DNA from: Deltaproteobacteria bacterium
GTDB taxonomy: Bacteria; UBA10199; JACPAL01
NCBI GenBank assembly: GCA_016180855.1
Contig: JACPAL010000018.1
Coordinates: forward strand, 17,066 to 81,065
Length of the DNA stretch: 64,000 nt
Direction of reading: 5' to 3'
Shown: one piece after another, positions 5,693-55,406 of the stretch
Position numbering within the stretch: the first letter of the stretch is position 1
Layout: each line of letters starts with the position of its first letter
Made by a program: the position numbers and the translations under genes
Notes under the pieces: generated by a model
Seen by the model: the letters and a program-made list of their open reading frames with translations, nothing else
Told to the model about the DNA's origin: nothing
The model's database searches: none

Positions 5693-7684
5693 GTGAAAAC
5701 GAGTCCCGCTAAAAATCAGGAACCCTTTTCCTTTGAAGAAGCGGTTTTTAAGGCGAGGGAGGCACTGCTTTCGGATCAATCCCCTAAAGGATACTGGTGG
5801 TACACCCTTGAGGCGAATGAGACGATTGGGGCCGGCTTCATCCAGCTGATGCATTTTTTAGGTGATGTCGATGCCGAGGTCGAAAAGGGTCTCGCCAGAA
5901 GAATTCTATCGGAACAGCGGCAAGACGGCTCTTGGGCCATTTTTTACGGAGGGCCAGCGGATCTTTCGACATCGATTGAATGCTATTTTGCCCTCCGTCT
6001 TGCCGGCCATTCTCCGGATGAGCCGGCGCTGGAACGTACAAGACTGTTTATTCTCTCTCACGGTGGGCTTGAGAGGGTTCGGGTTTTCACCAAAATTCAT
6101 CTGGCGCTTTTTGGGTTGATTACATGGGCGAAGTGCCCCTCAATGCCGCTCTGGTTTATCCACCTGCCCCACTGGCTTGGAATTTCAATCTATGAATTCT
6201 CCAGTTGGGCAAGGGCATCGATTGTACCACTGTTAATTATCCTGGATCGAAAACCAGTCAGGCCTCTTTCTTTTGATCTGAAGGAGCTTAAAGTATCCCC
6301 TCCCTTACTCTCTCCCCTTAAAATAAGGGGAGGGATGGGGAGGGGATATCAGTTTCCATGGAGGAACTTTTTCCTTCTTTTAGACAAAATCTTCAAAGCT
6401 ACGGAAAAACTTCCTTTTCATCCCGGTAAACAACATTTTCTAAAGAAATGTGAGGAATGGATCAGACGTCATATCGAAAGGACGGAAGATATCTACCCCG
6501 CAATGGCCTATGCCGCCTTGGCCATGAAGGCGCTTGGGTATCCCAATAGTGATCCAACAATCCAGAAGGCGTTAGCAGGCCTTAGACGATTTCAACAAAG
6601 TCACCGGGGCACTGACTTACCGATGGTAAGTGATAAGTCGGTAGGGGGCGGAGCCCCCTCCGAGTATCTTATCCATCAACAGTGTTGCATCTCCCCCCTA
6701 TGGGATACCCCCTGGGCCTGTCATGCCCTCTTGGAATCGGGCCTTCCGGCCGACGACCCCCATCTGAAAAGGGCCGCAAAATTTCTCATTTCAAAACAGA
6801 TTGTGGACTTTCATGGCGACTGGTCCCTCAAAAACAGCAGCGCCAAACCAGGTGGTTGGGCGTTTGAGTTTCAAAATGACTATTTTCCCGATGTCGACGA
6901 CACGATTGAAATCCTCCGCTTCATGAAAAGGGTCGATCTGCCGGTATCAGAGAAGAAGGGGACAATCGATCGGGGGCTTGAATGGCTCCTCTCCATGCAA
7001 TCAAAAAACGGTGGTTGGGCCGCATTTGACAAGAACAATCTTTCTACCTGGGTCAACAAGATTCCATTCTCCGATCACGGGGCCTGCCTCGACCCGCCAA
7101 CCCCGGATATCACGGGTCGAATGATTGAATTGTTGGTCTTGTTTAATTATTCAAAGGAGGATCCAGTCATCCAAAACAGCTTGAATTTTTTGTTTAAAAC
7201 CCAGGAACCGAATGGATCCTGGAGGGGGCGATGGGGGGTCAATTACCTTTACGGAACCTGGTGTGTCGTTCAGGGACTCGCCATGATCCACGATGAAAAA
7301 ACAGGGCTCGCGATTGGCCGCGCGATACGCTGGCTCCAGTCGGTCCAGAACCCGGATGGCGGTTGGGGAGAATCCTGCCTTTCAGACAAGGAAAATCGGT
7401 ATCTCCCCTTAGAGGTTTCAGTTCCTTCTCAAACCGCCTGGGCCGTCATGACCCTGATCGCCGCCGGCAAAAGAAGTTCCGAGTCGTGTCGCCGCGGAAT
7501 TGATTTTCTTATTGCCTCACAAACAGCCGACGGCCGATGGGAGGAAAGACACTTTACAGGAACGGGATTCCCGGGACATTTCTACATCCGCTATCACGGC
7601 TACCGACAGTATTTTCCGCTGCTCGCGTTGGGGAAATATCGAACGGACAAAAGAGAGCTGAAAACTATCGCTTGTCCGGCTTGA
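5693..7684 (+). CDS. shc: squalene-hopene cyclase
   Basis: DVDDT (DxDDTA) catalytic motif, repeated QW motifs (GGW/GSW) and CxSPLWDT. 663 aa. Confidence 0.9.
   Translation: MKTSPAKNQEPFSFEEAVFKAREALLSDQSPKGYWWYTLEANETIGAGFIQLMHFLGDVDAEVEKGLARRILSEQRQDGSWAIFYGGPADLSTSIECYFALRLAGHSPDEPALERTRLFILSHGGLERVRVFTKIHLALFGLITWAKCPSMPLWFIHLPHWLGISIYEFSSWARASIVPLLIILDRKPVRPLSFDLKELKVSPPLLSPLKIRGGMGRGYQFPWRNFFLLLDKIFKATEKLPFHPGKQHFLKKCEEWIRRHIERTEDIYPAMAYAALAMKALGYPNSDPTIQKALAGLRRFQQSHRGTDLPMVSDKSVGGGAPSEYLIHQQCCISPLWDTPWACHALLESGLPADDPHLKRAAKFLISKQIVDFHGDWSLKNSSAKPGGWAFEFQNDYFPDVDDTIEILRFMKRVDLPVSEKKGTIDRGLEWLLSMQSKNGGWAAFDKNNLSTWVNKIPFSDHGACLDPPTPDITGRMIELLVLFNYSKEDPVIQNSLNFLFKTQEPNGSWRGRWGVNYLYGTWCVVQGLAMIHDEKTGLAIGRAIRWLQSVQNPDGGWGESCLSDKENRYLPLEVSVPSQTAWAVMTLIAAGKRSSESCRRGIDFLIASQTADGRWEERHFTGTGFPGHFYIRYHGYRQYFPLLALGKYRTDKRELKTIACPA
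6294..6348. repeat. GC-palindromic element (TTAA-centred subtype) inserted in-frame in shc
   Basis: atcccctcccttactctctccccttaaaataaggggagggatggggaggggat. Encodes VSPPLLSPLKIRGGMGRG. Confidence 0.65.
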
Positions 7685-10419: not shown

Positions 10420-11993
10420 CGTTTGGAACGTTTCTCTGACCCCGCAACAACCATCCCCAACAAGATTTTACGATCTCTCTCGTCTAGCGAATGGACAATG
10501 ACAGAAAGTGTATCCCCCAACTGAGGTAATGTCCCCTCATCCGTTGGATCACGTTCAATGAACCCCTCTATTTTTTCCTCAAGCTCCGCCGCAATGCCAC
10601 GGTCACCGACCCAGACGACCTTTCCTTCATGCTTTGTCCCAATCGCATACTGCTCACGAACACGCGGCCAGGGATCTTCAGACAACTGCTTGATCCCGAG
10701 CGACGTCCTTTCCGCCTCCTGATCCATATTCAGAACAACCGCCTCCACCTCCGTCCCCTTGGGATAAAGGTCAGCCAGCGGGCGGGCCGGGCGGACCGAT
10801 CGAATATCCGATATATGGACCAATCCATCCACCTCAGGGGCCAAGCCGACGAAGATACCAAAGTCAGTGATGCTTCGAACCGGCCCCCGGACCGTCGAAC
10901 CAATAGGGTACTTTTCGGCAATAACTTTCCATGGATTTTCGTGGATCTGTTTCATCCCCAGCGAGATCCTTCTGGAAGAGAGATCCATGTCCAAAATAAC
11001 AACCTCCACCGTATCACCAAGGTTAACTATCTTTGAGGGATGCTTCGCCTTACGGCTCCAGCTCATCTCAGAAACATGGATCAGACCTTCCACACCCGGC
11101 TGCAGTTCCGTAAAGGCACCGTAGTCTGTCACATTCACAATCTTTCCCTTGACCCGTGAACCGATCGGATACTTTTCAAAAACATCGGCCCATGGATCGG
11201 GCGTTGTCTGTTTCAACCCGAGTGACACACGGCCGTTGTCAGGATCAATCTTGAGAATTTTGACTGTTATCTCCTGCCCCACCTGAAGCAGTTCCGAGGG
11301 ATGTCCAACCCTTCCCCAGCTCATATCAGTCACATGAAGAAGACCGTCAATCCCGCCTAAGTCGACAAAGGCACCATAATCGGTCAGATTTTTAATAACA
11401 CCTGAGATCGTCTGTCCCTCTTTAAGATTCTGAAGGACGTCCTGCCTGGCAAAATCCTTGTTCTTTTCGAGCAATGTCCGGCGTGAAACAATGACATTCC
11501 CCTTCCTCTTGTTCAATTTAATAATCTTGAATTTGAATTTCTTACCCAGAAGGCGATCCAGGCTTCCGCTCGGCCTTACATCAATCTGGGAGGCCGGGAG
11601 AAACGCCTTCACACCGATATCAACGGAGAGCCCCCCTTTGACCTTGCACAAAACGTTCCCCTCAATCGTTCCATCACTTTCAAATATCTCCTCCAACTGA
11701 TCCCAGATCTTGTAGGAAGCAGCTTTCTCTCTGGAAAGAATGGCAAGACCATCATCCGTATCAAGTTTTTCGAGATAAACCTCAAGCGAATCACCGACCT
11801 GGAATGGGACCACCCCGTTGGAATCCTTCAGTTCATAGAGGGGGACAAGCCCCTCCAGCTTAAAACCAAAGTCAACAATCGCATAATCTTTTGTTAGGCT
11901 GATGATCTGACCCTGAACGATATCTCCCTGAAGTGGAATCTCCTTTTGAAAACTCTTTTCGAGCAGCGAGGCAAAATCTTCTTCTTCAACCAT
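10416..11993 (-). CDS. rpsA: 30S ribosomal protein S1
   Basis: Six S1 RNA-binding repeats. 525 aa. Confidence 0.9.
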   Translation of the reverse strand: MVEEEDFASLLEKSFQKEIPLQGDIVQGQIISLTKDYAIVDFGFKLEGLVPLYELKDSNGVVPFQVGDSLEVYLEKLDTDDGLAILSREKAASYKIWDQLEEIFESDGTIEGNVLCKVKGGLSVDIGVKAFLPASQIDVRPSGSLDRLLGKKFKFKIIKLNKRKGNVIVSRRTLLEKNKDFARQDVLQNLKEGQTISGVIKNLTDYGAFVDLGGIDGLLHVTDMSWGRVGHPSELLQVGQEITVKILKIDPDNGRVSLGLKQTTPDPWADVFEKYPIGSRVKGKIVNVTDYGAFTELQPGVEGLIHVSEMSWSRKAKHPSKIVNLGDTVEVVILDMDLSSRRISLGMKQIHENPWKVIAEKYPIGSTVRGPVRSITDFGIFVGLAPEVDGLVHISDIRSVRPARPLADLYPKGTEVEAVVLNMDQEAERTSLGIKQLSEDPWPRVREQYAIGTKHEGKVVWVGDRGIAAELEEKIEGFIERDPTDEGTLPQLGDTLSVIVHSLDERDRKILLGMVVAGSEKRSKR

Positions 11994-15354: not shown

Positions 15355-16251
15355 ATGAGTCCCATCAAAGTGATGTCACTTAAAGAAGAACTCGAGGAGA
15401 TGCAAAATAACGTCGCCCTCTATAAGGCAAGCGATGAGAGACATCTTCATATGGAAGGGCCTGACGCGACCGATTATCTCCAAAGAATGGTCACAAATGA
15501 GGTCAAGACCCAGCCGATCGGCGAGGGACGTCACAACGCCCTGCTCGATCGAAAAGGTCATCCCCTCTCCCTCTTCTTTTTGATTAGGCTCTCCGAAAAC
15601 TTGTATCATCTGATTACACCACCCCAACTTAAGGAAAAGACCGCAGGGCTCTTGAAGAAATATAAGGTGATTGAGCGGTTTGAGATCAAAGATGTGAGTC
15701 AGGAGTGGGGGATTTATTGGGTAGTGGGATCTCCCGTGCCACCCGCTCTTCTGCCTGCTATTTGGCAAGAAACCATTTACAAAATCCCCGTTCGCAAAAT
15801 TCTCTATCCCAAAAATAACCCCCCTCCACTGGGAGATCTCCCTTCTGTTTCCAGACAGGCAATTGACCTCTTAAGGATGGAGGCGGGGATCCCGGAATAC
15901 GGTGTTGATATCGATGAGACGCATATTCTTCTGGAGGCCAATCTGGAGCATTGCTATAAGCGACAAAAAGGATGCTACCCCGGTCAGGAGGTGATCGAAA
16001 GAATATTGGCTTACGGTAAGGGACAGACACCGAAAAAACTTGTCACCCTGCTTGTAGAAGGAGAACGGGAGATACCCCCTAAGACAGCGATCTGGACGGC
16101 TGATAATCAAAAAGCAGGCGAAACAACCTCGGCCCTCTTTAACCCTTTAAAAAATGAGACCGTCGTCCTTGCCTACTTGGAGAATAAGTATCTTCCCCAA
16201 AGCAAGCTACATTTTGAGGATGGAACCTCTACAAAACTGCCCAGATGCTAG
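15355..16251 (+). CDS. ygfZ: YgfZ/GcvT-like folate-binding protein
   Basis: Signature KGCYPGQE near the C-terminal third, plus an aminomethyltransferase-like fold. Confidence 0.6.
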   Translation: MSPIKVMSLKEELEEMQNNVALYKASDERHLHMEGPDATDYLQRMVTNEVKTQPIGEGRHNALLDRKGHPLSLFFLIRLSENLYHLITPPQLKEKTAGLLKKYKVIERFEIKDVSQEWGIYWVVGSPVPPALLPAIWQETIYKIPVRKILYPKNNPPPLGDLPSVSRQAIDLLRMEAGIPEYGVDIDETHILLEANLEHCYKRQKGCYPGQEVIERILAYGKGQTPKKLVTLLVEGEREIPPKTAIWTADNQKAGETTSALFNPLKNETVVLAYLENKYLPQSKLHFEDGTSTKLPRC

Positions 16252-16347
16252 GCGCCCGCGAGCCAAAGACCGGAGCGTACTTGGCTGGTACGTGAGGATC
16301 TTTGGCGAGAGGGCAACAACGCAGATGGGCAGTTTTTAGAGGTTTTC
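16249..16347. repeat. family-1 related element (core gcgcccgc...ccggagcgtact...ggtacgtgagga...gcgggcaac...cagatgggcagtttttagagg) lacking TIRs
   Basis: Shares about 80 bp of core with 32905-33030 and the reverse complement of 47866-47970. Exactly spans the ygfZ-stop to PLP-enzyme-stop gap. Confidence 0.75.
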
Positions 16348-17646: not shown

Positions 17647-17804
17647 GTTATGGGGTGTGTTGAAAAATGGCTTTTGTGGACTGTTCAAAAATGCCCAGCT
17701 GCAAGACACCCCGAGGAGCCGCGACGCAGGCGTACTTGAGGGTACGTCGAGGAGCCGGCGACGAGGGGAACGCAGCAGATGGCATTTTTCAACAGTCCCT
17801 TATG
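17647..17804. repeat. family-2 MITE-like element with about 20-bp TIRs (GGGGACTGTTGAAAAATGCC) and TTATG flanks
   Basis: Near-identical to 37496-37626 apart from a 26-bp internal insertion. Fills the gap between the PLP-enzyme start and the recG stop. Confidence 0.8.
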
Positions 17805-27620: not shown

Positions 27621-27690
27621 CCTCTCCCCTTGGCCTGCCCTGAGCGAACCTGTCCTGAGCATCGTCGAAGGAGCCGAAGGGCGGGTGAGG
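27621..27690. repeat. family-3 GC-rich palindromic element (C-rich left arm, G-rich right arm, core cctgagc...gtcctgagc...gtcgaagga), intergenic prototype
   Basis: ccctctccccttggcctgccctgagcgaacctgtcctgagcatcgtcgaaggagccgaagggcgggtgagggg, between the yraN stop and the fadD-like start. Confidence 0.7.
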
Positions 27691-27697
27691 GGAAAAA

Positions 27698-28084
27698 TTA
27701 GTACCCCCACTGCAACAGAAACAGATCCGGGACCCATTCGCAGAAGGGGGGTGTTTTTTCAAAATCGACAATGATCAAGGCAAAGGAACCGGCTTGGTCA
27801 ACAATCTTTTTCGAGGCGTAATACTGCTGGGCAACACGTGAAATATGAAGCTGTTTCGGATACGGTACGAGCTCATAAGGTGAGACCCCTTCAAGAGAGC
27901 GACGACTCTTGACCTCTACAAAATAAAGGGCCTTCTCTTTTTCGGCAATCAAGTCGATCTCGCCTAAACGACATCGATAATTTCGTTCCCTAATCTGAAA
28001 ACCCCGGTTTTTGAGGAACTGAACCGCCTCCTCTTCCCCTTCCCTCCCCAGCTTTTTCTTTAAGAAATCCGGTTGCATGTTCAT
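27698..28084 (-). CDS. yraN: YraN-family (UPF0102) putative endonuclease
   Basis: GEEEAVQFLKNRGFQIRERNYRCRLGEIDLIA...YFVEVKSRR signature. Confidence 0.7.
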   Translation of the reverse strand: MNMQPDFLKKKLGREGEEEAVQFLKNRGFQIRERNYRCRLGEIDLIAEKEKALYFVEVKSRRSLEGVSPYELVPYPKQLHISRVAQQYYASKKIVDQAGSFALIIVDFEKTPPFCEWVPDLFLLQWGY

Positions 28085-32904: not shown

Positions 32905-33030
32905 CCTCCTGAGCAAAGTCGAAGGAATGCAAGGCGCCCGCAAGGCCGCGACCGGAGCGTACTTTCGTGGTACGTGAGGACGCGGACGAAGCGGGCAACA
33001 CAGCAGATGGGTAGTTTTTAGAGGTGCCCA
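32905..33030. repeat. family-1 related element with 5' cctgagcaaagtcgaagga module
   Basis: Core alignment to 16253-16345 and 47866-47970. Located upstream of yicC. Confidence 0.75.
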
Positions 33031-43106: not shown

Positions 43107-45766
43107 AGGTTCCGATAGGTTTCCGAGAGGCGTTCTACCTTCTCGACGTTGGTTCTCTGTTTTTGCCGCTCCTCCGCCACAAGTTCAGGGTCAGCATGAT
43201 TCAAAAAACCAGGGTCGGATAATTTTTTATGGAGTCGATCTCCAAGCTCGTTCAGCTTCTGAATCTCCTTTTCAAGGCGCTTCTTCTCCGTTTCAAGATC
43301 GACAAGTCCTTCCAGTGGGAGATAGAGATCCAACCGGCCGAGTGAATAGTGGGCCATTTTTTTTGAAACTGGTTTTGCGGAGACAAACTGGAGACTGCAG
43401 GAACGCGTCATCTTTTCTATCATCCCCTTTTCCCCTTCCAGCCAATGCCTCTCCTCCCTCTCCTCAACAGACAGGATCGGCTGAATCTCCTGGGCAGCCT
43501 GAATCCCATTCTCACCACGCAATGTCCGAAGTGCCGTCACAATCTCCATCAATCTTTCAACACGCCTTGGCTCTCCCTCAAAGTCCCATTGTTTGGGAGT
43601 CGGAAAAGATTCTATTCCGATCGATAGCCCTTCTTTCTGATTTAAAAACTGACAGATCTCCTCCGTGATAAACGGCATGAATGGATGAAGGGCCCGGAGG
43701 GTTTCATCCAGAATCTCGGAGAAGACCGACTGATTCAACCGAACCTTGGAGAACTCCAGATACCAGTCACACAAGGTGTGCCAAAAAAAGTCATAAAGTT
43801 CCTTCGCCGCCTCATCAAAACGATACCCCTCGATTCCCCTTGTTATTTTTGCGAGTGAAGAGGCCCACTTCTGCAAAATCCATTGATCATAGTCGCTTAA
43901 GATCTCGCGAGAGATCTCCTGAGGCGGCAGGCTCACAAAAAAACGCGCCGCGTTCCAGATCTTGTTACAGAAGTTCCGATACCCCTCAATCACGGGCTCG
44001 GAGAGCTTCACATCACGACCGGGCACCGCCAGGACCGCCAACGTAAAACGAAAGGCATCCGTACCAAATTGATCCATGATCGTGAGCGGATCAATGACAT
44101 TTCCCTTCGACTTGCTCATCTTCTGTCCCTGCGCGTCACGCACGAGGGCATGGATATAAATATCCTTAAAAGGAACCTCCCCCATAAACTCAAGCCCCAT
44201 CATCATCATCCGGGCGACCCAGAAAAAAATGATATCGAAGCCCGTAATCAGAACCGATGTGGGGTAAAAGGTCTTAAGCTCCTCTGTCTGGTCCGGCCAA
44301 CCGAGTGTAGAAAAGGGCCAGAGGGCGGAGGAGAACCAGGTATCGAGAACATCGGAATCTTGCTCAAGTTCGGTCGAGCCGCAGGTGGGACATTTTTTAG
44401 GTATATCACGGGAAACAATAGGAGGACATATCCCCCCCTTCCCCCCCCTTAATTTAAGGGAGGGGATACAGTACCACGCCGGAATCCGATGCCCCCACCA
44501 GATCTGACGTGAAACACACCAATCTTTAATCTCACCCATCCAGTTCGCGTAGGTCTTTGTCCAATTGTCCGGAAAGAATCGTGCCTTTCCATCCTGAACC
44601 GCTTGAAGCGCCTTTTCCGCGAGTGGCTTTGTTTTTACAAACCACTGCATCGAAAGATACGGTTCCACAACAGTTCGACAGCGATAACAATGGCCAACCG
44701 AGAGCTTGTGCGGTTCAACCTTTTCAAGAAACCCTTGCTGCTCCAGCTCTTCGACAATCTTTTTTCGGCATTCGAAACGATCCAACCCCTGAAAGGAGAC
44801 CGCGTTTTCGTTCATCCTCCCTTCATCCGTAAAAATATTAATACGAGGGAGCTTATGGTCGTTTCCAAAAATGAAATCGTTGAAGTCATGGGCCGGGGTT
44901 ACTTTAACCGCACCCGTCCCAAACTCCTTGTCAACACGAGGGTCAGAAATAATAGGGATCTCCCGATTGACTAAAGGCAATAATAGTTTTTTACCAATAA
45001 GACCTTTATACCGTTCATCTTCAGGGTGAACCGCAACGGCGGTATCTCCAAGCATCGTTTCAGGACGCGTGGTGGCCACCCTCACCCCCACCCCCTCTCC
45101 CGCCCTTCGGCATGGCTCAGGGAAGGCCAAGGGGAGAGGAGAGGCAAATGGGTAGCGAACAAACCACAAATGCCCATTCGTCTCATGATGCTCTACCTCC
45201 AGATCGGAAAGCGCCGTCTTGCAACGAGGACACCAGTTGATGAGATAGAGATCACGGTAGATCAGCCCCTTGTTGTAAAGACGGACAAACGCCTCACGCA
45301 CGGCGCGCGAGAGCCCCTCATCCATCGTAAACCGTTCGCGCTTCCAGTCACAGGAGGCCCCCAATCTTTTTAGTTGATGAATGATCTGTCCACCCGACTG
45401 CCCCTTCCATTCCCAAACCTTTTCAATGAAGCGTTCCCTTCCCAAATCCTGTCGTTTCTTCCCCTCCTTGGCTATGTCACGCTCTACAACGTTCTGCGTC
45501 GCAATGCCGGCATGATCAGTCCCCGGCATCCAGAGGACATTGAACCCTTTCATCCGTTTGTAGCGGGCAAGGATGTCCTGGAGGGTGTTGTTCAGGGCAT
45601 GCCCCATATGAAGCGAGCCCGTGACGTTCGGTGGCGGGATCACCATACAAAATGGGGGTTTGGATGATTTTGGCTCTGCATGGAAGTAGCCTTCCTTGAG
45701 CCAGACTTCTGACCATCGTCTCTCAACTTCATGCGGCTCGTACGCCTTGGGGAGTTCCCTCTTCAT
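43103..45766 (-). CDS. valS: valine--tRNA ligase
   Basis: HMGH and KMSKS motifs, plus a C-terminal coiled coil. 887 aa. Contains two in-frame palindromic element insertions (see repeats). Confidence 0.95.
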   Translation of the reverse strand: MKRELPKAYEPHEVERRWSEVWLKEGYFHAEPKSSKPPFCMVIPPPNVTGSLHMGHALNNTLQDILARYKRMKGFNVLWMPGTDHAGIATQNVVERDIAKEGKKRQDLGRERFIEKVWEWKGQSGGQIIHQLKRLGASCDWKRERFTMDEGLSRAVREAFVRLYNKGLIYRDLYLINWCPRCKTALSDLEVEHHETNGHLWFVRYPFASPLPLAFPEPCRRAGEGVGVRVATTRPETMLGDTAVAVHPEDERYKGLIGKKLLLPLVNREIPIISDPRVDKEFGTGAVKVTPAHDFNDFIFGNDHKLPRINIFTDEGRMNENAVSFQGLDRFECRKKIVEELEQQGFLEKVEPHKLSVGHCYRCRTVVEPYLSMQWFVKTKPLAEKALQAVQDGKARFFPDNWTKTYANWMGEIKDWCVSRQIWWGHRIPAWYCIPSLKLRGGKGGICPPIVSRDIPKKCPTCGSTELEQDSDVLDTWFSSALWPFSTLGWPDQTEELKTFYPTSVLITGFDIIFFWVARMMMMGLEFMGEVPFKDIYIHALVRDAQGQKMSKSKGNVIDPLTIMDQFGTDAFRFTLAVLAVPGRDVKLSEPVIEGYRNFCNKIWNAARFFVSLPPQEISREILSDYDQWILQKWASSLAKITRGIEGYRFDEAAKELYDFFWHTLCDWYLEFSKVRLNQSVFSEILDETLRALHPFMPFITEEICQFLNQKEGLSIGIESFPTPKQWDFEGEPRRVERLMEIVTALRTLRGENGIQAAQEIQPILSVEEREERHWLEGEKGMIEKMTRSCSLQFVSAKPVSKKMAHYSLGRLDLYLPLEGLVDLETEKKRLEKEIQKLNELGDRLHKKLSDPGFLNHADPELVAEERQKQRTNVEKVERLSETYRNL
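44431..44470. repeat. GC-palindromic element (TTAA-centred subtype) inserted in-frame in valS
   Basis: atccccccccttccccccccccttaatttaagggaggggat. Encodes PSLKLRGGKGG, the same SLK[IL]RGG peptide as the shc copy. Confidence 0.65.
45066..45134. repeat. family-3 palindromic element (short form) inserted in-frame in valS
   Basis: The reverse complement cctctcctctccccttggccttccctgagc..ccgaagggcgggagaggggg aligns with 27621-27690. Encodes PLPLAFPEPCRRAGEGVGV in a variable ValS loop. Confidence 0.65.
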
Positions 45767-45793: not shown

Positions 45794-46615
45794 CTAAATT
45801 GCACGAAACTTTTTATCAGCAACGATCCTGAGCCCCTTCAAGGTCAGAAACGGCTCCAGCTTTTGAATGGTCCGACACTCCTTGGCAATCAAGGTGGCGA
45901 ATCCACCAGTCGCTATCACTGCCGTTTTCATACCAAGCTCCTTCTGAATGAGCCCTACCAGCCGATCGACGAGACCGGCGTATCCATAATAAACGCCTCC
46001 CTGGATACACTCCCTCGTCTGCCTCCCAATAACCCGCTTCGGTTTTGCAATTGAAACGAGCGGTAGCTTGGCTGTCTTCTCATGTAACGCCTCAAGGCAG
46101 ATTCGTAAGCCAGGAACGATCGGTCCACCAAGGTATTCCCCCTGCGCTGAAACGACATCCAAGGTCGTCGCAGTCCCGAAATCAATGATGATAATGGGAA
46201 CGGTCTTTAAATCCCCCCTCGCCCCCCTTTGACTTGTCCTGAGCCCTGTCGAAGGACAAAGGGGGGTTGGGGGGATTTTCCATGCCGCAACTGCATTCGC
46301 AATCCGATCGGCCCCCACTTCTGACGGTTTTTTTGTCTTAAACCTGATCGGCAGTTTTGTCCTGGATGTCACAAACAGAGGCTCAACTCCAAATTTCTTT
46401 CTGAGAAGAAGACGGAACGGTTTATCCAGTCGGGGGACAACACTTGCCACGACAACGCAATTAACTTGCGAGATCCAAAGTTTCCGCAAAAGGGAGAGCC
46501 CCTTGTGGGTCTCAAAACGACGATGCCACCGGAGCCGCTCCCCCTCAAATAGGCCGACGACAATATTTGTATTGCCTACATCAATGGCGAGAATCTTTCT
46601 CTTCCCCTCACCCAC
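45794..46615 (-). CDS. coaX: type III pantothenate kinase
   Basis: ILAIDVGNTN and IIIIDFGTATT phosphate motifs. About 20-25 aa longer than typical because of a palindromic in-frame insertion. Confidence 0.85.
   Translation of the reverse strand: MGEGKRKILAIDVGNTNIVVGLFEGERLRWHRRFETHKGLSLLRKLWISQVNCVVVASVVPRLDKPFRLLLRKKFGVEPLFVTSRTKLPIRFKTKKPSEVGADRIANAVAAWKIPPTPLCPSTGLRTSQRGARGDLKTVPIIIIDFGTATTLDVVSAQGEYLGGPIVPGLRICLEALHEKTAKLPLVSIAKPKRVIGRQTRECIQGGVYYGYAGLVDRLVGLIQKELGMKTAVIATGGFATLIAKECRTIQKLEPFLTLKGLRIVADKKFRAI
46211..46277. repeat. family-3 palindromic element inserted in-frame in coaX
   Basis: atcccccctcgccccccttt-gacttgtcctgagccctgtcgaaggacaa-aggggggttggggggat. Encodes IPPTPLCPSTGLRTSQRGARGD between conserved CoaX segments. 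Confidence 0.7.
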
Positions 46616-47842: not shown

Positions 47843-47995
47843 CAGGATAGCGACAAAGGCCCATCTACTGCGGGCTTCGACTGAGCTCAGCCGAAGTCTT
47901 GCCCGCTTCAACCGCAATCCTCACGTACCGGTAAAGTACGCTCCGGTTGCGGCCTTGCGGGCGCCTTGCATCTGGACCTTTGTCGCTATCCTGTT
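47841..47995. repeat. family-1 MITE-like element, full copy with 17-bp perfect TIRs CAGGATAGCGACAAAGG and TTAA/TTAT flanks
   Basis: aacaggatagcgacaaaggcc at the left end and ggacctttgtcgctatcctgtt at the right. Fills the convergent PEBP / Na-Pi transporter gap exactly and supplies part of both stop codons. Confidence 0.8.
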
Positions 47996-52713: not shown

Positions 52714-55350
52714 TCAGTTTGCCTTCTCCTTGAGTGACGCGTGTGCCGCGGCAAGACGGGCAATCGGGACACGGTAGGGAGAGCAACTGACATAATGAAG
52801 CCCCACCTCGTGAAAAAACTGGATTGAGTCGGGATCACCACCATGCTCTCCGCAAATGCCGATCTTGAGGCCTGGACGTGCCTTCCTCCCCTTCTCGATC
52901 GCAATCCGGACAAGTTCACCGACCCCCTGAACATCGATCGATACAAACGGATTTTTTGGAAAAACCCCATGGTCGACATAGAACGGCAGGAAGCCAGCCG
53001 CATCATCGCGCGAAATACCAAAAGTCGTTTGTGTCAGATCATTCGTCCCGAAGGAAAAGAAATCGGCAACCGTGGCAATCTCATCCGCGGTCAACGCCGC
53101 ACGCGGGAGCTCAATCATCGTTCCGACCAGATAGGGACATTTGATCTTTCTGCGATTTAAGACATCCTGGCAGACCTGTTCCGCCTCTTCCCTCATCCGC
53201 TTGAGCTCTTCCACATGACCCACTAACGGAATCATAATCTCGGGATAGACAGTAACCCCTTCACAAGTAAGGTCGGCTGCCGCCTCCATGATCGCCTCCA
53301 CCTGCATCCGGTAGATCTCGGGATAGGTGACACCGAGTCGGCAACCACGGTGCCCCAGCATCGGATTCGCCTCATGCAACACCTCGGCCTGAACCTTGAT
53401 TTTGGAAACAGAGACCCCAATTCGACGGGCCAGATCTTCCAATTCCCGATCGGTCTTCGGAATAAACTCGTGCAGAGGCGGATCAAGCAAGCGGATCGTT
53501 ACCGGAAAACCCTCCATCGCCTTTAAAATGCCCTTGAAGTCCGCGCGCTGGATCGGAAGCAGTTTGGCAAGCGCCTTCTCGCGCTCTCCCCTCTCCTGCG
53601 CAAGAATCATCTCACGCACAATATCAATACGGTCCGGATCAAAAAACATATGCTCTGTCCGGCACAGGCCGATTCCTTCAGCACCAAAGGAACGTGCCAC
53701 CGCAGAGTCATGCGGCGTATCGGCATTGGTCCGTATCTTAAGCCTTCGGTATTTGTCAGCCCACTTCATCAAGATTCCGAAATCACCGGAAAGATCCGGC
53801 TTGGTGGTCGGGACCCGTCCCCAAATCACCTCTCCGGTTGAACCATTCAAGGTAAGCCAGTCTCCCTTTCGAACCTGACGATTCCCGATCTGAACCTGAT
53901 CCGCCAAAAACTCGATTTCGGTGCAACCGGAGACACAGCATTTTCCCATTCCCCGAGCGACAACGGCGGCATGGGAGGTCATCCCACCCCGCGCCGTCAA
54001 GATTCCTTCTGCGACATGCATCCCGTGAATATCCTCCGGTGACGTCTCCTGACGGACCAGGATCACCTTTTCCCCCCTGCCAACCCATTCCTGCGCCTCA
54101 TCCGCAGTCAGGACCACGCGCCCTACGGCAGCTCCCGGTGAGGCGGGCAAACCGTTGGCCAAAACCTCCTTGGGGGCGTTCGGATCCAGCGTGGGATGAA
54201 GGAGCTGATCCAATTGGGCGGGCGCGACACGCAAAATCGCCTCCGGTTCCGTAATCAAACCTTCCGAAACCATCTCGACCGCTATCCGGACAGCCGCATG
54301 AGCCGTTCTTTTTCCGGATCGGGTTTGAAGCATCCAGACCTTGCCGTTCTGGATTGTAAATTCAATATCCTGCATCTCACGATAATGCCTCTCCAGCCGC
54401 TCCTGAATCTGGAACAATTCACGATAGGCAGCCGGCATCACCTTCTCAAGGGAGTTCGCCGTCCCGTTAATAGAATGCGGCGTACGAATCCCGGCAACAA
54501 CATCTTCCCCTTGCGCATTCACAAGGTACTCACCAAAAAACTTTTTCTCACCGGTCGCGGGATCGCGTGTAAAGGCAACACCGGTGGCACAATCGTTCCC
54601 CCTATTTCCGAAAACCATCGCCTGAACATTGACCGCAGTCCCCCAATGTTCGGGGTATTGATGAATTCTGCGATATTCAATCGCACGACGGCTGTTCCAC
54701 GACTTAAAGACGGCACCGACCGCTCCCCATAACTGGAGCCACGGATCGGACGGAAATTCCTGCTTCAGTTCCTTTTTTACAAGGGAGAGAAAAGAGCCGG
54801 TCAGCTCTTCCAGATCGTTCAGGTCGAGCTCCGTATCAAGTCGGACCCCCTTCTTCTTCTTTTTGGCATCGAGAAGCGCCTCAAAATGCTCGTGACCGAG
54901 ACCAAGGACCACATCCGAATACATCTCGATAAAGCGGCGATAGCTGTCAAAAGCGAACCGGCGATTCTTTGTCCTCCGTGCAAGTCCCTCAACGGTCCTC
55001 TCGTTTAGGCCCAGATTGAGAATCGTGTCCATCATGCCTGGCATACTGACACGAGCACCGGAACGAACCGACAATAATAGAGGATTTTCAACAGAGCCAA
55101 ACTGACCTCCCATCACCTCCTCAACTCGTGAAAGGCCCCTCTTGACCTCCTTTTCCAGGCTGTCGGGAAATCTCCCGCCGTTACGGAAGTATTCCGTACA
55201 AAGCTCCGTCGTAATCGTAAAACCGGCCGGGACAGGAATTCCCAAATTGACCATCTCGGCCAGACCTGCCCCCTTGCCTCCCAGAAGCTCCTTCTGTTTG
55301 CCGTCTCCATCGGCATGGCCAGCACCAAAAAAATAGACCTCTTTTGCCAT
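52714..55350 (-). CDS. ppdK: pyruvate, phosphate dikinase
   Basis: PEP-utilizer and PPDK domains. Start at ATG 55350 (MAKEVYFF), which is preceded by GGGGG. The ORF track begins 13 codons upstream. Confidence 0.9.
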   Translation of the reverse strand: MAKEVYFFGAGHADGDGKQKELLGGKGAGLAEMVNLGIPVPAGFTITTELCTEYFRNGGRFPDSLEKEVKRGLSRVEEVMGGQFGSVENPLLLSVRSGARVSMPGMMDTILNLGLNERTVEGLARRTKNRRFAFDSYRRFIEMYSDVVLGLGHEHFEALLDAKKKKKGVRLDTELDLNDLEELTGSFLSLVKKELKQEFPSDPWLQLWGAVGAVFKSWNSRRAIEYRRIHQYPEHWGTAVNVQAMVFGNRGNDCATGVAFTRDPATGEKKFFGEYLVNAQGEDVVAGIRTPHSINGTANSLEKVMPAAYRELFQIQERLERHYREMQDIEFTIQNGKVWMLQTRSGKRTAHAAVRIAVEMVSEGLITEPEAILRVAPAQLDQLLHPTLDPNAPKEVLANGLPASPGAAVGRVVLTADEAQEWVGRGEKVILVRQETSPEDIHGMHVAEGILTARGGMTSHAAVVARGMGKCCVSGCTEIEFLADQVQIGNRQVRKGDWLTLNGSTGEVIWGRVPTTKPDLSGDFGILMKWADKYRRLKIRTNADTPHDSAVARSFGAEGIGLCRTEHMFFDPDRIDIVREMILAQERGEREKALAKLLPIQRADFKGILKAMEGFPVTIRLLDPPLHEFIPKTDRELEDLARRIGVSVSKIKVQAEVLHEANPMLGHRGCRLGVTYPEIYRMQVEAIMEAAADLTCEGVTVYPEIMIPLVGHVEELKRMREEAEQVCQDVLNRRKIKCPYLVGTMIELPRAALTADEIATVADFFSFGTNDLTQTTFGISRDDAAGFLPFYVDHGVFPKNPFVSIDVQGVGELVRIAIEKGRKARPGLKIGICGEHGGDPDSIQFFHEVGLHYVSCSPYRVPIARLAAAHASLKEKAN

Positions 55351-55406
55351 AACACCCCCCCTTTTTTTTGAAATTCGTCCTCTCTTCAATCAAAACCTCT
55401 CAAGAA

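Follow-up and report, generated by a model that had tools for sequence, protein, structure and literature searches.

We describe a small palindromic element, E1, that lies in frame inside the squalene-hopene cyclase (SHC) gene, shc, of an uncultured 'Deltaproteobacteria' metagenome-assembled genome (MAG), at positions 6294-6348 of a 64,000-nt stretch of contig JACPAL010000018.1 (hereafter the window, in which positions are given unless another contig is named). E1 belongs to a family of palindromic repeats with copies in other genes of the window, in many other bacteria and in viral contigs. The reading that we favour, with a probability of roughly 0.6, is that this is a small repeat copied in trans, whose copies inside genes survive only in open frames within tolerant protein loops. 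On this model E1 would be one copy of a ~40-55 bp repeat that is non-coding by origin, has arms rich in C (5′) and in G (3′), usually with two C and two G blocks round a TTT/TTA-loop-AAA/TAA centre, and ends in (A)AAT...ATT(T) or TAT...ATA. Trans-acting machinery would make the copies, which could land anywhere in the genome; the palindrome would read as Pro/Ser/Leu then Lys/Arg/Gly on either strand, and its loop would leave one to three frames open. Open-frame copies in surface loops able to tolerate 13-24 extra disordered residues would be kept via selection on the host gene and translated, copies landing otherwise would be purged, and resident copies would decay afterwards, in this lineage by in-frame deletions.

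E1 and its relatives in the window

The host gene of E1 is a 663-codon open reading frame (ORF) whose product matches the SHC structure PDB 1gsz at E=1.4e-143 and has thousands of SHC homologues. Looking up the exact SHC protein in an index of contigs gave nothing, probably because another start codon had been chosen by the gene callers. E1 itself (TATCCCCTCCCTTACTCTCTCCCCTTAAAATAAGGGGAGGGATGGGGAGGGGATA, 55 bp) is an imperfect two-tier palindrome, in which ATCCCCTCCC pairs with GGGAGGGGAT as the outer stem and CTCTCCCCTTA with TAAGGGGAGGG as the inner one, round a loop of 3 nt. When 70-nt segments were folded as RNA at a step of 5 across the entire 64 kb, E1 ranked first at -44.6 kcal/mol (mean -14.1, sd 5.1); as single-stranded DNA it gave z=-4.83, with none of 200 dinucleotide shuffles as stable. 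In the shc frame it is read as VSPPLLSPLKIRGGMGRG (residues ~201-219, the next residue being Y). Direct reading of its centre, CCCCTTAAAATAAGGGG, shows stops in two of the three frames, so that a single frame is able to survive within a gene.

AlphaFold2, run on the SHC alignment, gave a confident fold overall (mean predicted local distance difference test score (pLDDT) 84, predicted template modelling score (pTM) 0.86), with pLDDT <50 at residues 205-221, which correspond to E1, and at 315-322, in a second variable loop. In this model the E1 peptide is a floppy proline/glycine loop. An alignment of 20 SHC sequences places an unrelated loop of 10-22 residues at the E1 site in most orthologues. 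In the SHC of A. acidocaldarius (PDB 1gsz chain A, ~197-216) the loop aligned to residues ~200-222 of the window SHC reads VPPRRRGAKGGGGW, and directly precedes the region aligned to helix 223-238 of the model. A preliminary description of the window had proposed that a palindrome lies in frame within shc, as a lineage-specific segment of a loop that varies in length, and the sequence, the reading frame, the rank of the fold and the orthologue alignment all bear this out.

Simple exact patterns (ATCCCCTCCC with one mismatch; CCCCTT..AAGGGG) showed no enrichment over shuffles in the window, whose copies are too diverged for such searches, and a profile was therefore needed. We built a family profile hidden Markov model (HMM) from 23 hand-registered copies from other genomes, none of them of the window's lineage. 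It recovered copies in coaX (E=7e-11), valS (E=8e-4) and, in shc, E1 (E=0.03), together with copies in two relatives, L123 (E=3e-15) and L122 (about 1e-9); the best match in 20 shuffled windows had E=8.8. E1 represents a diverged 'TAT...ATA' subfamily with a TTA-loop-TAA centre; an independent copy from a metagenome, L317, matches it at 80% identity. The features of the window discussed below are as follows.

5693-7684, plus strand: shc, squalene-hopene cyclase (homologues, PDB 1gsz match), enclosing E1 in frame
6294-6348: E1, 'TAT...ATA' two-tier C-arm/G-arm element in frame in shc (fold, family HMM, L317, strain deletion)
6615-6675: second hairpin pair in shc, not a detectable family member (fold, window search, HMM, pLDDT <50 at 315-322)
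27622-27698: intergenic family B copy, with a module nested in a second module; shares arms with valS site 2
43103-45766, minus strand: valS, valine-tRNA ligase, carrying E2 and a family B insert
44428-44468: E2, in frame in valS (family HMM, same-site copies)
45086-45145: valS site 2, family B insert (similarity to 27622-27698)
45105-45128: 24-nt inner segment of valS site 2 with CCTGAGC-N4-CCGAAGG, absent in the 98.8%-identical strain L124
45794-46615, minus strand: coaX, type III pantothenate kinase (orthologue lengths)
46208-46279: E3, canonical copy in frame in coaX (HMM, fold rank 2)
46233-46259: module CTTGTCCTGAGCCCTGTCGAAGGACAA in the loop of E3; the simple element of a relative, P0244, is without it

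E2 lies between two Cys codons of valS and reads IPSLKLRGGKGGI on the minus strand. It is a decayed copy of the 'TAT' subfamily, with 9 nt of the C arm missing in comparison with the same-site copies of L221 and L222. At this first site of valine-tRNA ligase (ValRS), some relatives read YC-DKK-CPPIV or YC-EKEV-CPPIV, without the element, and three others (P0125, P0126 and P0131) have it between the same two Cys residues. The same palindrome type and the same encoded SLK[IL]RGG core had been noted in valS beforehand, and the copy was confirmed at 44428-44468. Read on either strand, a palindrome with its C arm first presents a C arm and then a G arm, giving Pro/Ser/Leu then Lys/Arg/Gly, and shc (plus) and valS (minus) can therefore share this core; the shared peptide reflects the common TTA-loop-TAA centre, which is open in one of three frames. 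The same subfamily likewise gives the same peptide, IPPQPPLKLRGGEGG, in valS and gcvPB.

A second insert in valS (~45086-45145), which we assign to a 'family B', has the form CTCTCCCCTTGGCCT.CCCTGAGC...CCGAAGGGCGGG.GAGGGG, is read as ASPLPLAFPEPCRRAGEGVG, is partly palindromic and occupies a length-variable loop preceding VATTRPE. Its DNA fold is no better than that of shuffles (z=-0.03) and the family HMM misses it; it is grouped with the other elements because its sequence resembles the intergenic copy at 27622-27698, with which it shares arms and core, and not because of its own fold. The fold of that intergenic copy, taken alone, is also not significant (z=-1.5). E3, by comparison, is a canonical copy (AAATCCCCCCTCGCCCCCCTTT...AAAGGGGGGTTGGGGGGATTT), in frame in coaX, read as KIPPTPLCPSTGLRTSQRGARGDL and forming the second most stable hairpin of the window (DNA z=-4.24). 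CoaX has 273 aa here versus 241-254 aa in relatives, which lack E3; the relative P0244 has a simple KIPPGPPFSKGG element in the same loop.

The module nested in E3 is itself repeated. CCTGAGC-N2-8-CGAAGG occurs four times in the window versus 0.03 expected, in the form CCTGAGC-N4-5-(G/C)(T/C)CGAAGG, at 27654-27671, 32908-32925, 45104-45121 (minus strand) and 46238-46255. Three of the four copies lie inside larger C/G-rich elements, namely the loop of E3, valS site 2 and the intergenic copy, where the module at 27654 is nested within another copy of itself; the fourth is that at 32908. The same nesting is found in an unrelated genome, L115.

It had also been suggested that a second, smaller palindrome in shc may be an insertion. 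The structure at ~6615-6661 consists of two hairpins and is real (DNA z=-6.58, none of 200 shuffles as stable), and the pair as a whole falls in the hypervariable loop 2 of SHC (residues ~308-327), where the orthologue in L122 has a canonical family element. It is at most a putative insertion: no further copy was found within the 64-kb window, the family HMM missed it and it could not be tied to any family.

The peptide encoded by E1 could instead be a native SHC loop of biased composition (Pro then Gly/Arg), with palindromy a by-product of CCN/GGN codons. The A. acidocaldarius loop at the aligned position lends this some colour, and Pro and Gly codons are indeed partly complementary. However, the palindromy extends to third codon positions and to the Leu/Lys/Ile loop, the structure is far beyond that of dinucleotide shuffles, the loop differs in most SHC orthologues, and the same DNA is met with again in other genes, on either strand, and between genes. 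We consider this explanation very improbable. Judged from these sequence comparisons, the segments in shc, valS and coaX are best described as insertions rather than native loops.

A family spread over phyla, viral contigs and genes

Outside the window the family has the consensus (A)AAT-C6-N2-4-C6-TTT-N2-5-AAA-G6-N2-4-G6-ATT(T). When one genome per species was scanned with a degenerate pattern, at least 120 loci were returned; almost all of the matches listed are the same C6/G6 unit, and the carriers among them include Nitrospirota, Thermodesulfobacteriota/Syntrophales, Methylomirabilota, Nitrospinota, Acidobacteriota and others. This C/G-block family is present in six or more bacterial phyla as well as in viral contigs, where the pattern scan found 96 loci and the HMM 92 copies in 48 of those. 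Symmetry, unit length and the flanking positions 3-4 (AA...TT), which are 80-90% conserved, were not imposed by the search pattern. By these searches the family is much wider than one genome, extending to many phyla and to viruses.

Both the window and many of the matches come from metagenome assemblies, and G/C homopolymers are error-prone, so an assembly or sequencing artefact (poly-G artefacts, or chimeric joins in MAGs) has to be considered. Against this, the same element is present at the same site in independent assemblies (the MAG contigs L001 and L124, and a Logan assembly whose CoaX is 100% identical), genomes of isolates (Nostoc strains and Baaleninema PCC 7105) also carry copies, and the reading frame is kept through every intragenic copy. 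An artefact is hardly credible.

Residence within genes is common. Among the pattern matches listed, 27 of 120 are spanned by long ORFs, as are 7 of 27 extra HMM matches that were not selected by the pattern. Hosts in which Pfam domains flank or span the insert include a radical SAM enzyme, CbiG, RecJ, CobN and the editing domain of leucine-tRNA ligase (LeuRS); GH3 (sole domain upstream of the insert) and CoA-transferase III (sole domain downstream) are weaker cases, and GcvPB, a further host, was named from the ORF translation rather than a domain search. Several host genes carry two or three copies. Intragenic residence is, from these ORF assignments, a general property of the family. Of the intergenic copies, 12 lie between convergent genes and 11 between divergent ones, with no clear positional bias, as judged with a crude ORF caller.

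Several further observations concern the wider family. In cyanobacteria (L003, L013, L026, L112 and other loci; for example L112 2360-2423) there is a conserved two-hairpin version of ~64 nt, GATCCCCCCTAACCCCCCTTAAAAAGGGGGGAACCGGAATCAAAGTCCCCCTTTTTAAGGGGGATTTAGGG, mostly outside long ORFs. The IMG/VR contigs L216 (650-830, 2239-2478, 4410-4528 and 6083-6248) and L152 (973-4750) hold arrays of 3-5 tandem half and full elements between same-strand genes, in which a single outer C arm and a single outer G arm enclose several inner hairpins. A metagenome scan for the 'TAT' subfamily returned mostly related high-copy repeats with a CCTCCCCTTA..TAAGGGGAGG hairpin and few full two-tier relatives of E1. 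In L226-L343 (ERZ1643246-51) and in the human-gut contigs L224, L225, L227 and L235, very high-copy repeats take the form TATCCC(C/T)TCC-(hairpin)-(A/C)CCTCCCCTTAC(C/A)ATAAGGGGAGG; the small hairpin is variable with compensatory changes, and the repeats have the left end and inner hairpin of E1 and no right outer arm. They may represent a superfamily related to E1. Finally, in one MAG, two contigs (L040 2676-2723 and L046 5198-5245) have the same element, oppositely oriented and with 12-nt flanks that are identical, which suggests that the hairpin there belongs to a larger unit repeated in that genome.

It is also conceivable that the copies are intrinsic, possibly bidirectional, terminators or mRNA-stabilising hairpins that resemble one another by convergence, those in genes being accidental or captured. 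Canonical copies form strong GC hairpins with AAA(A)T on one side and ATTT(T) on the other, and the arrays of the viral contig L216 lie between same-strand genes. However, different phyla have in common a two-block architecture, a TTT-loop-AAA centre and even entire spacer variants (TCA/AT), an agreement too specific for convergence. In addition, E1 and E3 have no following T run and were not called terminator-like, about a quarter of the copies among the matches listed are inside genes, and gaps between divergent genes hold as many copies as those between convergent ones. Many canonical copies elsewhere do end in ATTTT, so this terminator feature belongs to part of the family only. As an account of the family we regard termination as improbable; a terminator role for some intergenic copies with A-run and T-run flanks is plausible.

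Copying, decay and conservation

Comparison with close relatives of the window gives the most direct view of how copies change. Contigs L001 and L124 of the MAG GCA_016202325.1 are 98.8-99.5% identical to the window over ~13.9 kb, in which there are just two indels, of 36 and 24 nt; both fall within elements and both are multiples of three. The 36-nt in-frame event in L001 removes the right arm of E1, half of the element, together with 12 native nt; the native codons YQFPW are lost, and AGG microhomology is present at the bounds. Outgroup SHCs keep the motif F-[PS]-[LW]-x-N-F-F at this site, which identifies the event as a deletion in the other strain. The 24-nt difference from L124 concerns the inner CCTGAGC..CGAAGG segment of valS site 2 and is the sole indel in 4.7 kb. 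Judged from these two in-frame indels inside elements, resident copies are eroding in frame in this lineage.

More distant relatives point to gain. In L122 (GCA_016180845.1; SHC 64% identical), shc has three full elements in three loops, at 10594-10648, 10877-10934 and 11409-11467 of that contig. Two of these are near-identical and share the genome-specific features ATCTCCCCCC-TTCG-CCCCCCTCTTT...AAAGAGGGGGG-TT-GGGGGGGGAT; near-identity with genome-specific spacers may be taken as evidence for recent copying. In L123, loop 1 of shc contains a canonical copy whose frame, read directly from the codons, differs from that of the window and of L122, which points to two or more independent insertions there. 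What has been observed is a repeat family that resides in frame within genes, is lineage-specific in its presence, has subfamilies particular to single genomes, is polymorphic between strains and is spread widely among taxa; mobility as the means of copying, translation of the inserts and their near-neutrality for the host protein are inferred.

Several results weigh against copying in trans of a near-neutral repeat. No clean filled-versus-empty site pair was found, so that mobility is inferred rather than demonstrated. There is no transposase or RAYT-like gene in the window (Pfam, ~30 further ORFs): specifically, no REP-associated tyrosine transposase (RAYT; IS200/IS605-type Y1 transposase) appeared among the Pfam-scanned ORFs of the window or the genes called on L001 and L122. 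No target-site duplication was seen beyond AT, which the search pattern itself required, and the lengths of intragenic ATC...GAT segments, taken from coordinates, are not a constant multiple of three, which argues against simple cut-and-paste with a fixed duplication. The VPPRRRGAKGGGGW loop of Alicyclobacillus SHC recalls the E1 peptide in composition and place, a likeness at the peptide level. Furthermore, the family is nearly identical across phyla and, as set out below, same-site copies have diverged far less than their host genes at synonymous positions; neither result is predicted for a purely neutral, decaying parasite.

One case of conservation is site 1 of valS, where the copies in the window, L221 and L222 share the codon boundary TGT|ATC...ATA|TGT in ValRS proteins that are 68-74% identical to one another. 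Elsewhere in its valS gene, L222 has a canonical copy that differs from the site-1 copy, the quirks of which match those of L221 and the window; this favours orthology of the site-1 copies over fresh insertion. Of the five differences between L221 and L222, three are in the 3-nt loop and the others are in the G-side spacer and the outer stem. The comparisons, whose synonymous counts rest on just 8-10 four-fold sites each, are listed here as element against host gene.

valS, L221 vs L222: 43/48 nt vs 68% for the gene (p=5e-4); four-fold third positions 8/9 vs 35% (p=0.0014)
valS, L221 vs window: 36/39 nt vs 66% (p=1.3e-4); four-fold third positions 7/8 vs 30% (p=0.0013)
gcvPB, L272 vs L273: 42/48 nt vs 67% (p=0.0013); four-fold third positions 9/10 vs 32% (p=2.6e-4)

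Such conservation could arise from selection on the hairpin, from correction of one arm by the other, from conversion by other copies or from site-specific re-insertion, all of which are possible. The first of these implies a different view of the family, in which the hairpin is a functional nucleic-acid module under selection for DNA or RNA structure and its presence in coding sequence is maintained, a view compatible with a mobile origin. Candidate roles for the module are a site that a conserved protein binds or processes, a point of pausing in transcription or translation, and a cruciform that corrects itself. The valS and gcvPB copies, conserved at the nucleotide and the four-fold level, speak for selection of this kind, as do the quirks of the L222 site-1 copy that are common to L221 and the window and support orthology, the flanking AA...TT that the search pattern did not require, and the spacers, which are complementary in 7 of 34 cases versus 1.5 expected (none of 2000 shuffles reaches 7). 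However, the remaining 27 of 34 spacers are not complementary, arms are being deleted in the window's own lineage (36 nt from shc, 9 nt from valS and 24 nt from site 2 of valS), no clear preference of intergenic copies for convergent or divergent gaps was seen with the crude ORF caller used, there are only 9-10 synonymous sites per case, and gene conversion or arm-to-arm correction could yield the same conservation without function. Maintenance as a functional module is possible, but we think it unlikely on balance. Its broadest form, in which the C/G-block hairpin is shared or exchanged across phyla and viruses, is maintained at the nucleotide level and is read by a widely distributed protein or acts as a pause or processing signal, so that the same DNA would double as protein loop and structured signal, is similarly doubtful. 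We retain copying in trans, with survival in tolerated open frames, as the preferred account.

Two further features of the window stand apart from this family. A different, intergenic family of long hairpins (~100 nt) is represented at 16230-16340, 17680-17800, 32930-33025 and 47860-47990, with the form ...GCCCAG.TGC...GGAGCGTAC-loop-GTACGTGAGGA...GCAGATGGGCA...; GGACTGTTCAAAAATGCC/GGCATTTTTCAACAGTCC encloses some of the copies, its outer stem is also found at 37523-37542/37603-37622, and all copies lie between genes. It had no Rfam match at the gathering threshold. Pfam PPDK_N aligns to the pyruvate phosphate dikinase ORF (52714-55389, minus strand) in three parts, and the stretch of this ORF that matches PEP-utilizers_C is ~60 residues longer than the profile; to judge from these alignments it may hold further lineage-specific inserts.

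Relation to known palindromic repeats

Rickettsia supplies the best-known palindromic repeats lying in frame within essential genes, and these have been regarded as a peculiarity of reduced genomes. The same in-frame behaviour is seen here in free-living, uncultured lineages of groundwater and sediment, with a much smaller unit. We found no prior description of the C/G-block family: nothing was found in the literature searched for the element sequences or the encoded peptides, and concept searches gave only papers on Rickettsia palindromic elements (RPEs), repetitive extragenic palindromic (REP) sequences and transposable elements of the miniature inverted-repeat type (MITEs). Rfam 15 likewise gave no match in the window at the gathering threshold and none at E<=0.01 in five copy-rich loci. 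The family explains a recurring class of insertions rich in Pro and Gly ('PP.PPF.KGG.GG'), as well as spurious small ORFs, in catalogues of metagenome proteins, and its elements are natural markers of permissive loops in SHC, ValRS, LeuRS, RecJ and CobN. For the biology of mobile elements it would be of interest to identify the enzyme by which a 42-bp hairpin is copied across phyla, and the synonymous conservation of same-site copies despite a saturated host gene raises the question of function, arm self-correction or continuing conversion.

The nested module resembles the small dispersed repeats (SDRs) of Nostoc reported by Elhai and colleagues in 2008, in which very small repeats reportedly insert into other repeats. 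The likeness lies in a module of 21-27 nt nested in hairpin loops; the difference is that SDRs were described in cyanobacteria, whereas this module comes from an uncultured 'Deltaproteobacteria' MAG.

The preliminary description had called E1 RPE-like and had held that such elements are rarely documented beyond Rickettsia. The second statement does not hold, since intragenic palindromic repeats outside Rickettsia have already been described (PMC3733652, PMC2229807). The first is apt for behaviour and not for membership. Like RPEs (Ogata et al. 2000, summarised in PMC2229807), the elements are repeated palindromic DNA found between genes and in frame in housekeeping genes, including tRNA-related enzymes, with same-site insertions common to related species and with peptides in tolerant parts of proteins; in the window, several palindromic copies (in shc, valS and coaX, with an intergenic relative) include copies in frame in conserved genes. 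However, RPEs are given as 105-146 bp long and specific to Rickettsia (PMC2229807), whereas the window elements are 40-72 bp units of C/G blocks, from a family that is neither of RPE length nor restricted to Rickettsia.

REP sequences and REPINs form a second group for comparison. These GTAG- and CGTC-tagged, GC-rich imperfect palindromes of 20-40 bp occur many times per genome, are presumed to be mobilised in trans and have some intragenic copies, including in tRNA synthetase and DNA repair genes (PMC3733652, PMC3116915). The elements described here are also short, repeated, GC-rich imperfect palindromes, but direct reading of the ends of E1, E2 and E3 gives TAT/ATA or AAAT/ATTT and no GTAG/CGTC tag. 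The window copies are mostly intragenic, whereas REPs are mainly extragenic, and REP families are usually species-specific, whereas the C/G-block consensus is common to several phyla. MITEs such as the 107-bp form of Correia elements, ERIC and YPAL are likewise non-autonomous, form long stem-loops and sometimes make in-frame fusions, but they are ~100-300 bp long, with terminal inverted repeats round a non-palindromic core and usually with target duplications of TA or longer (PMC2229807, PMC10969869). Here, in contrast, the whole unit is one hairpin, complementarity of the flanks fades by position 5-6 and there is no direct repeat >2 nt. The C/G-block family is therefore RPE- and REP-like in its behaviour and a member of neither group.

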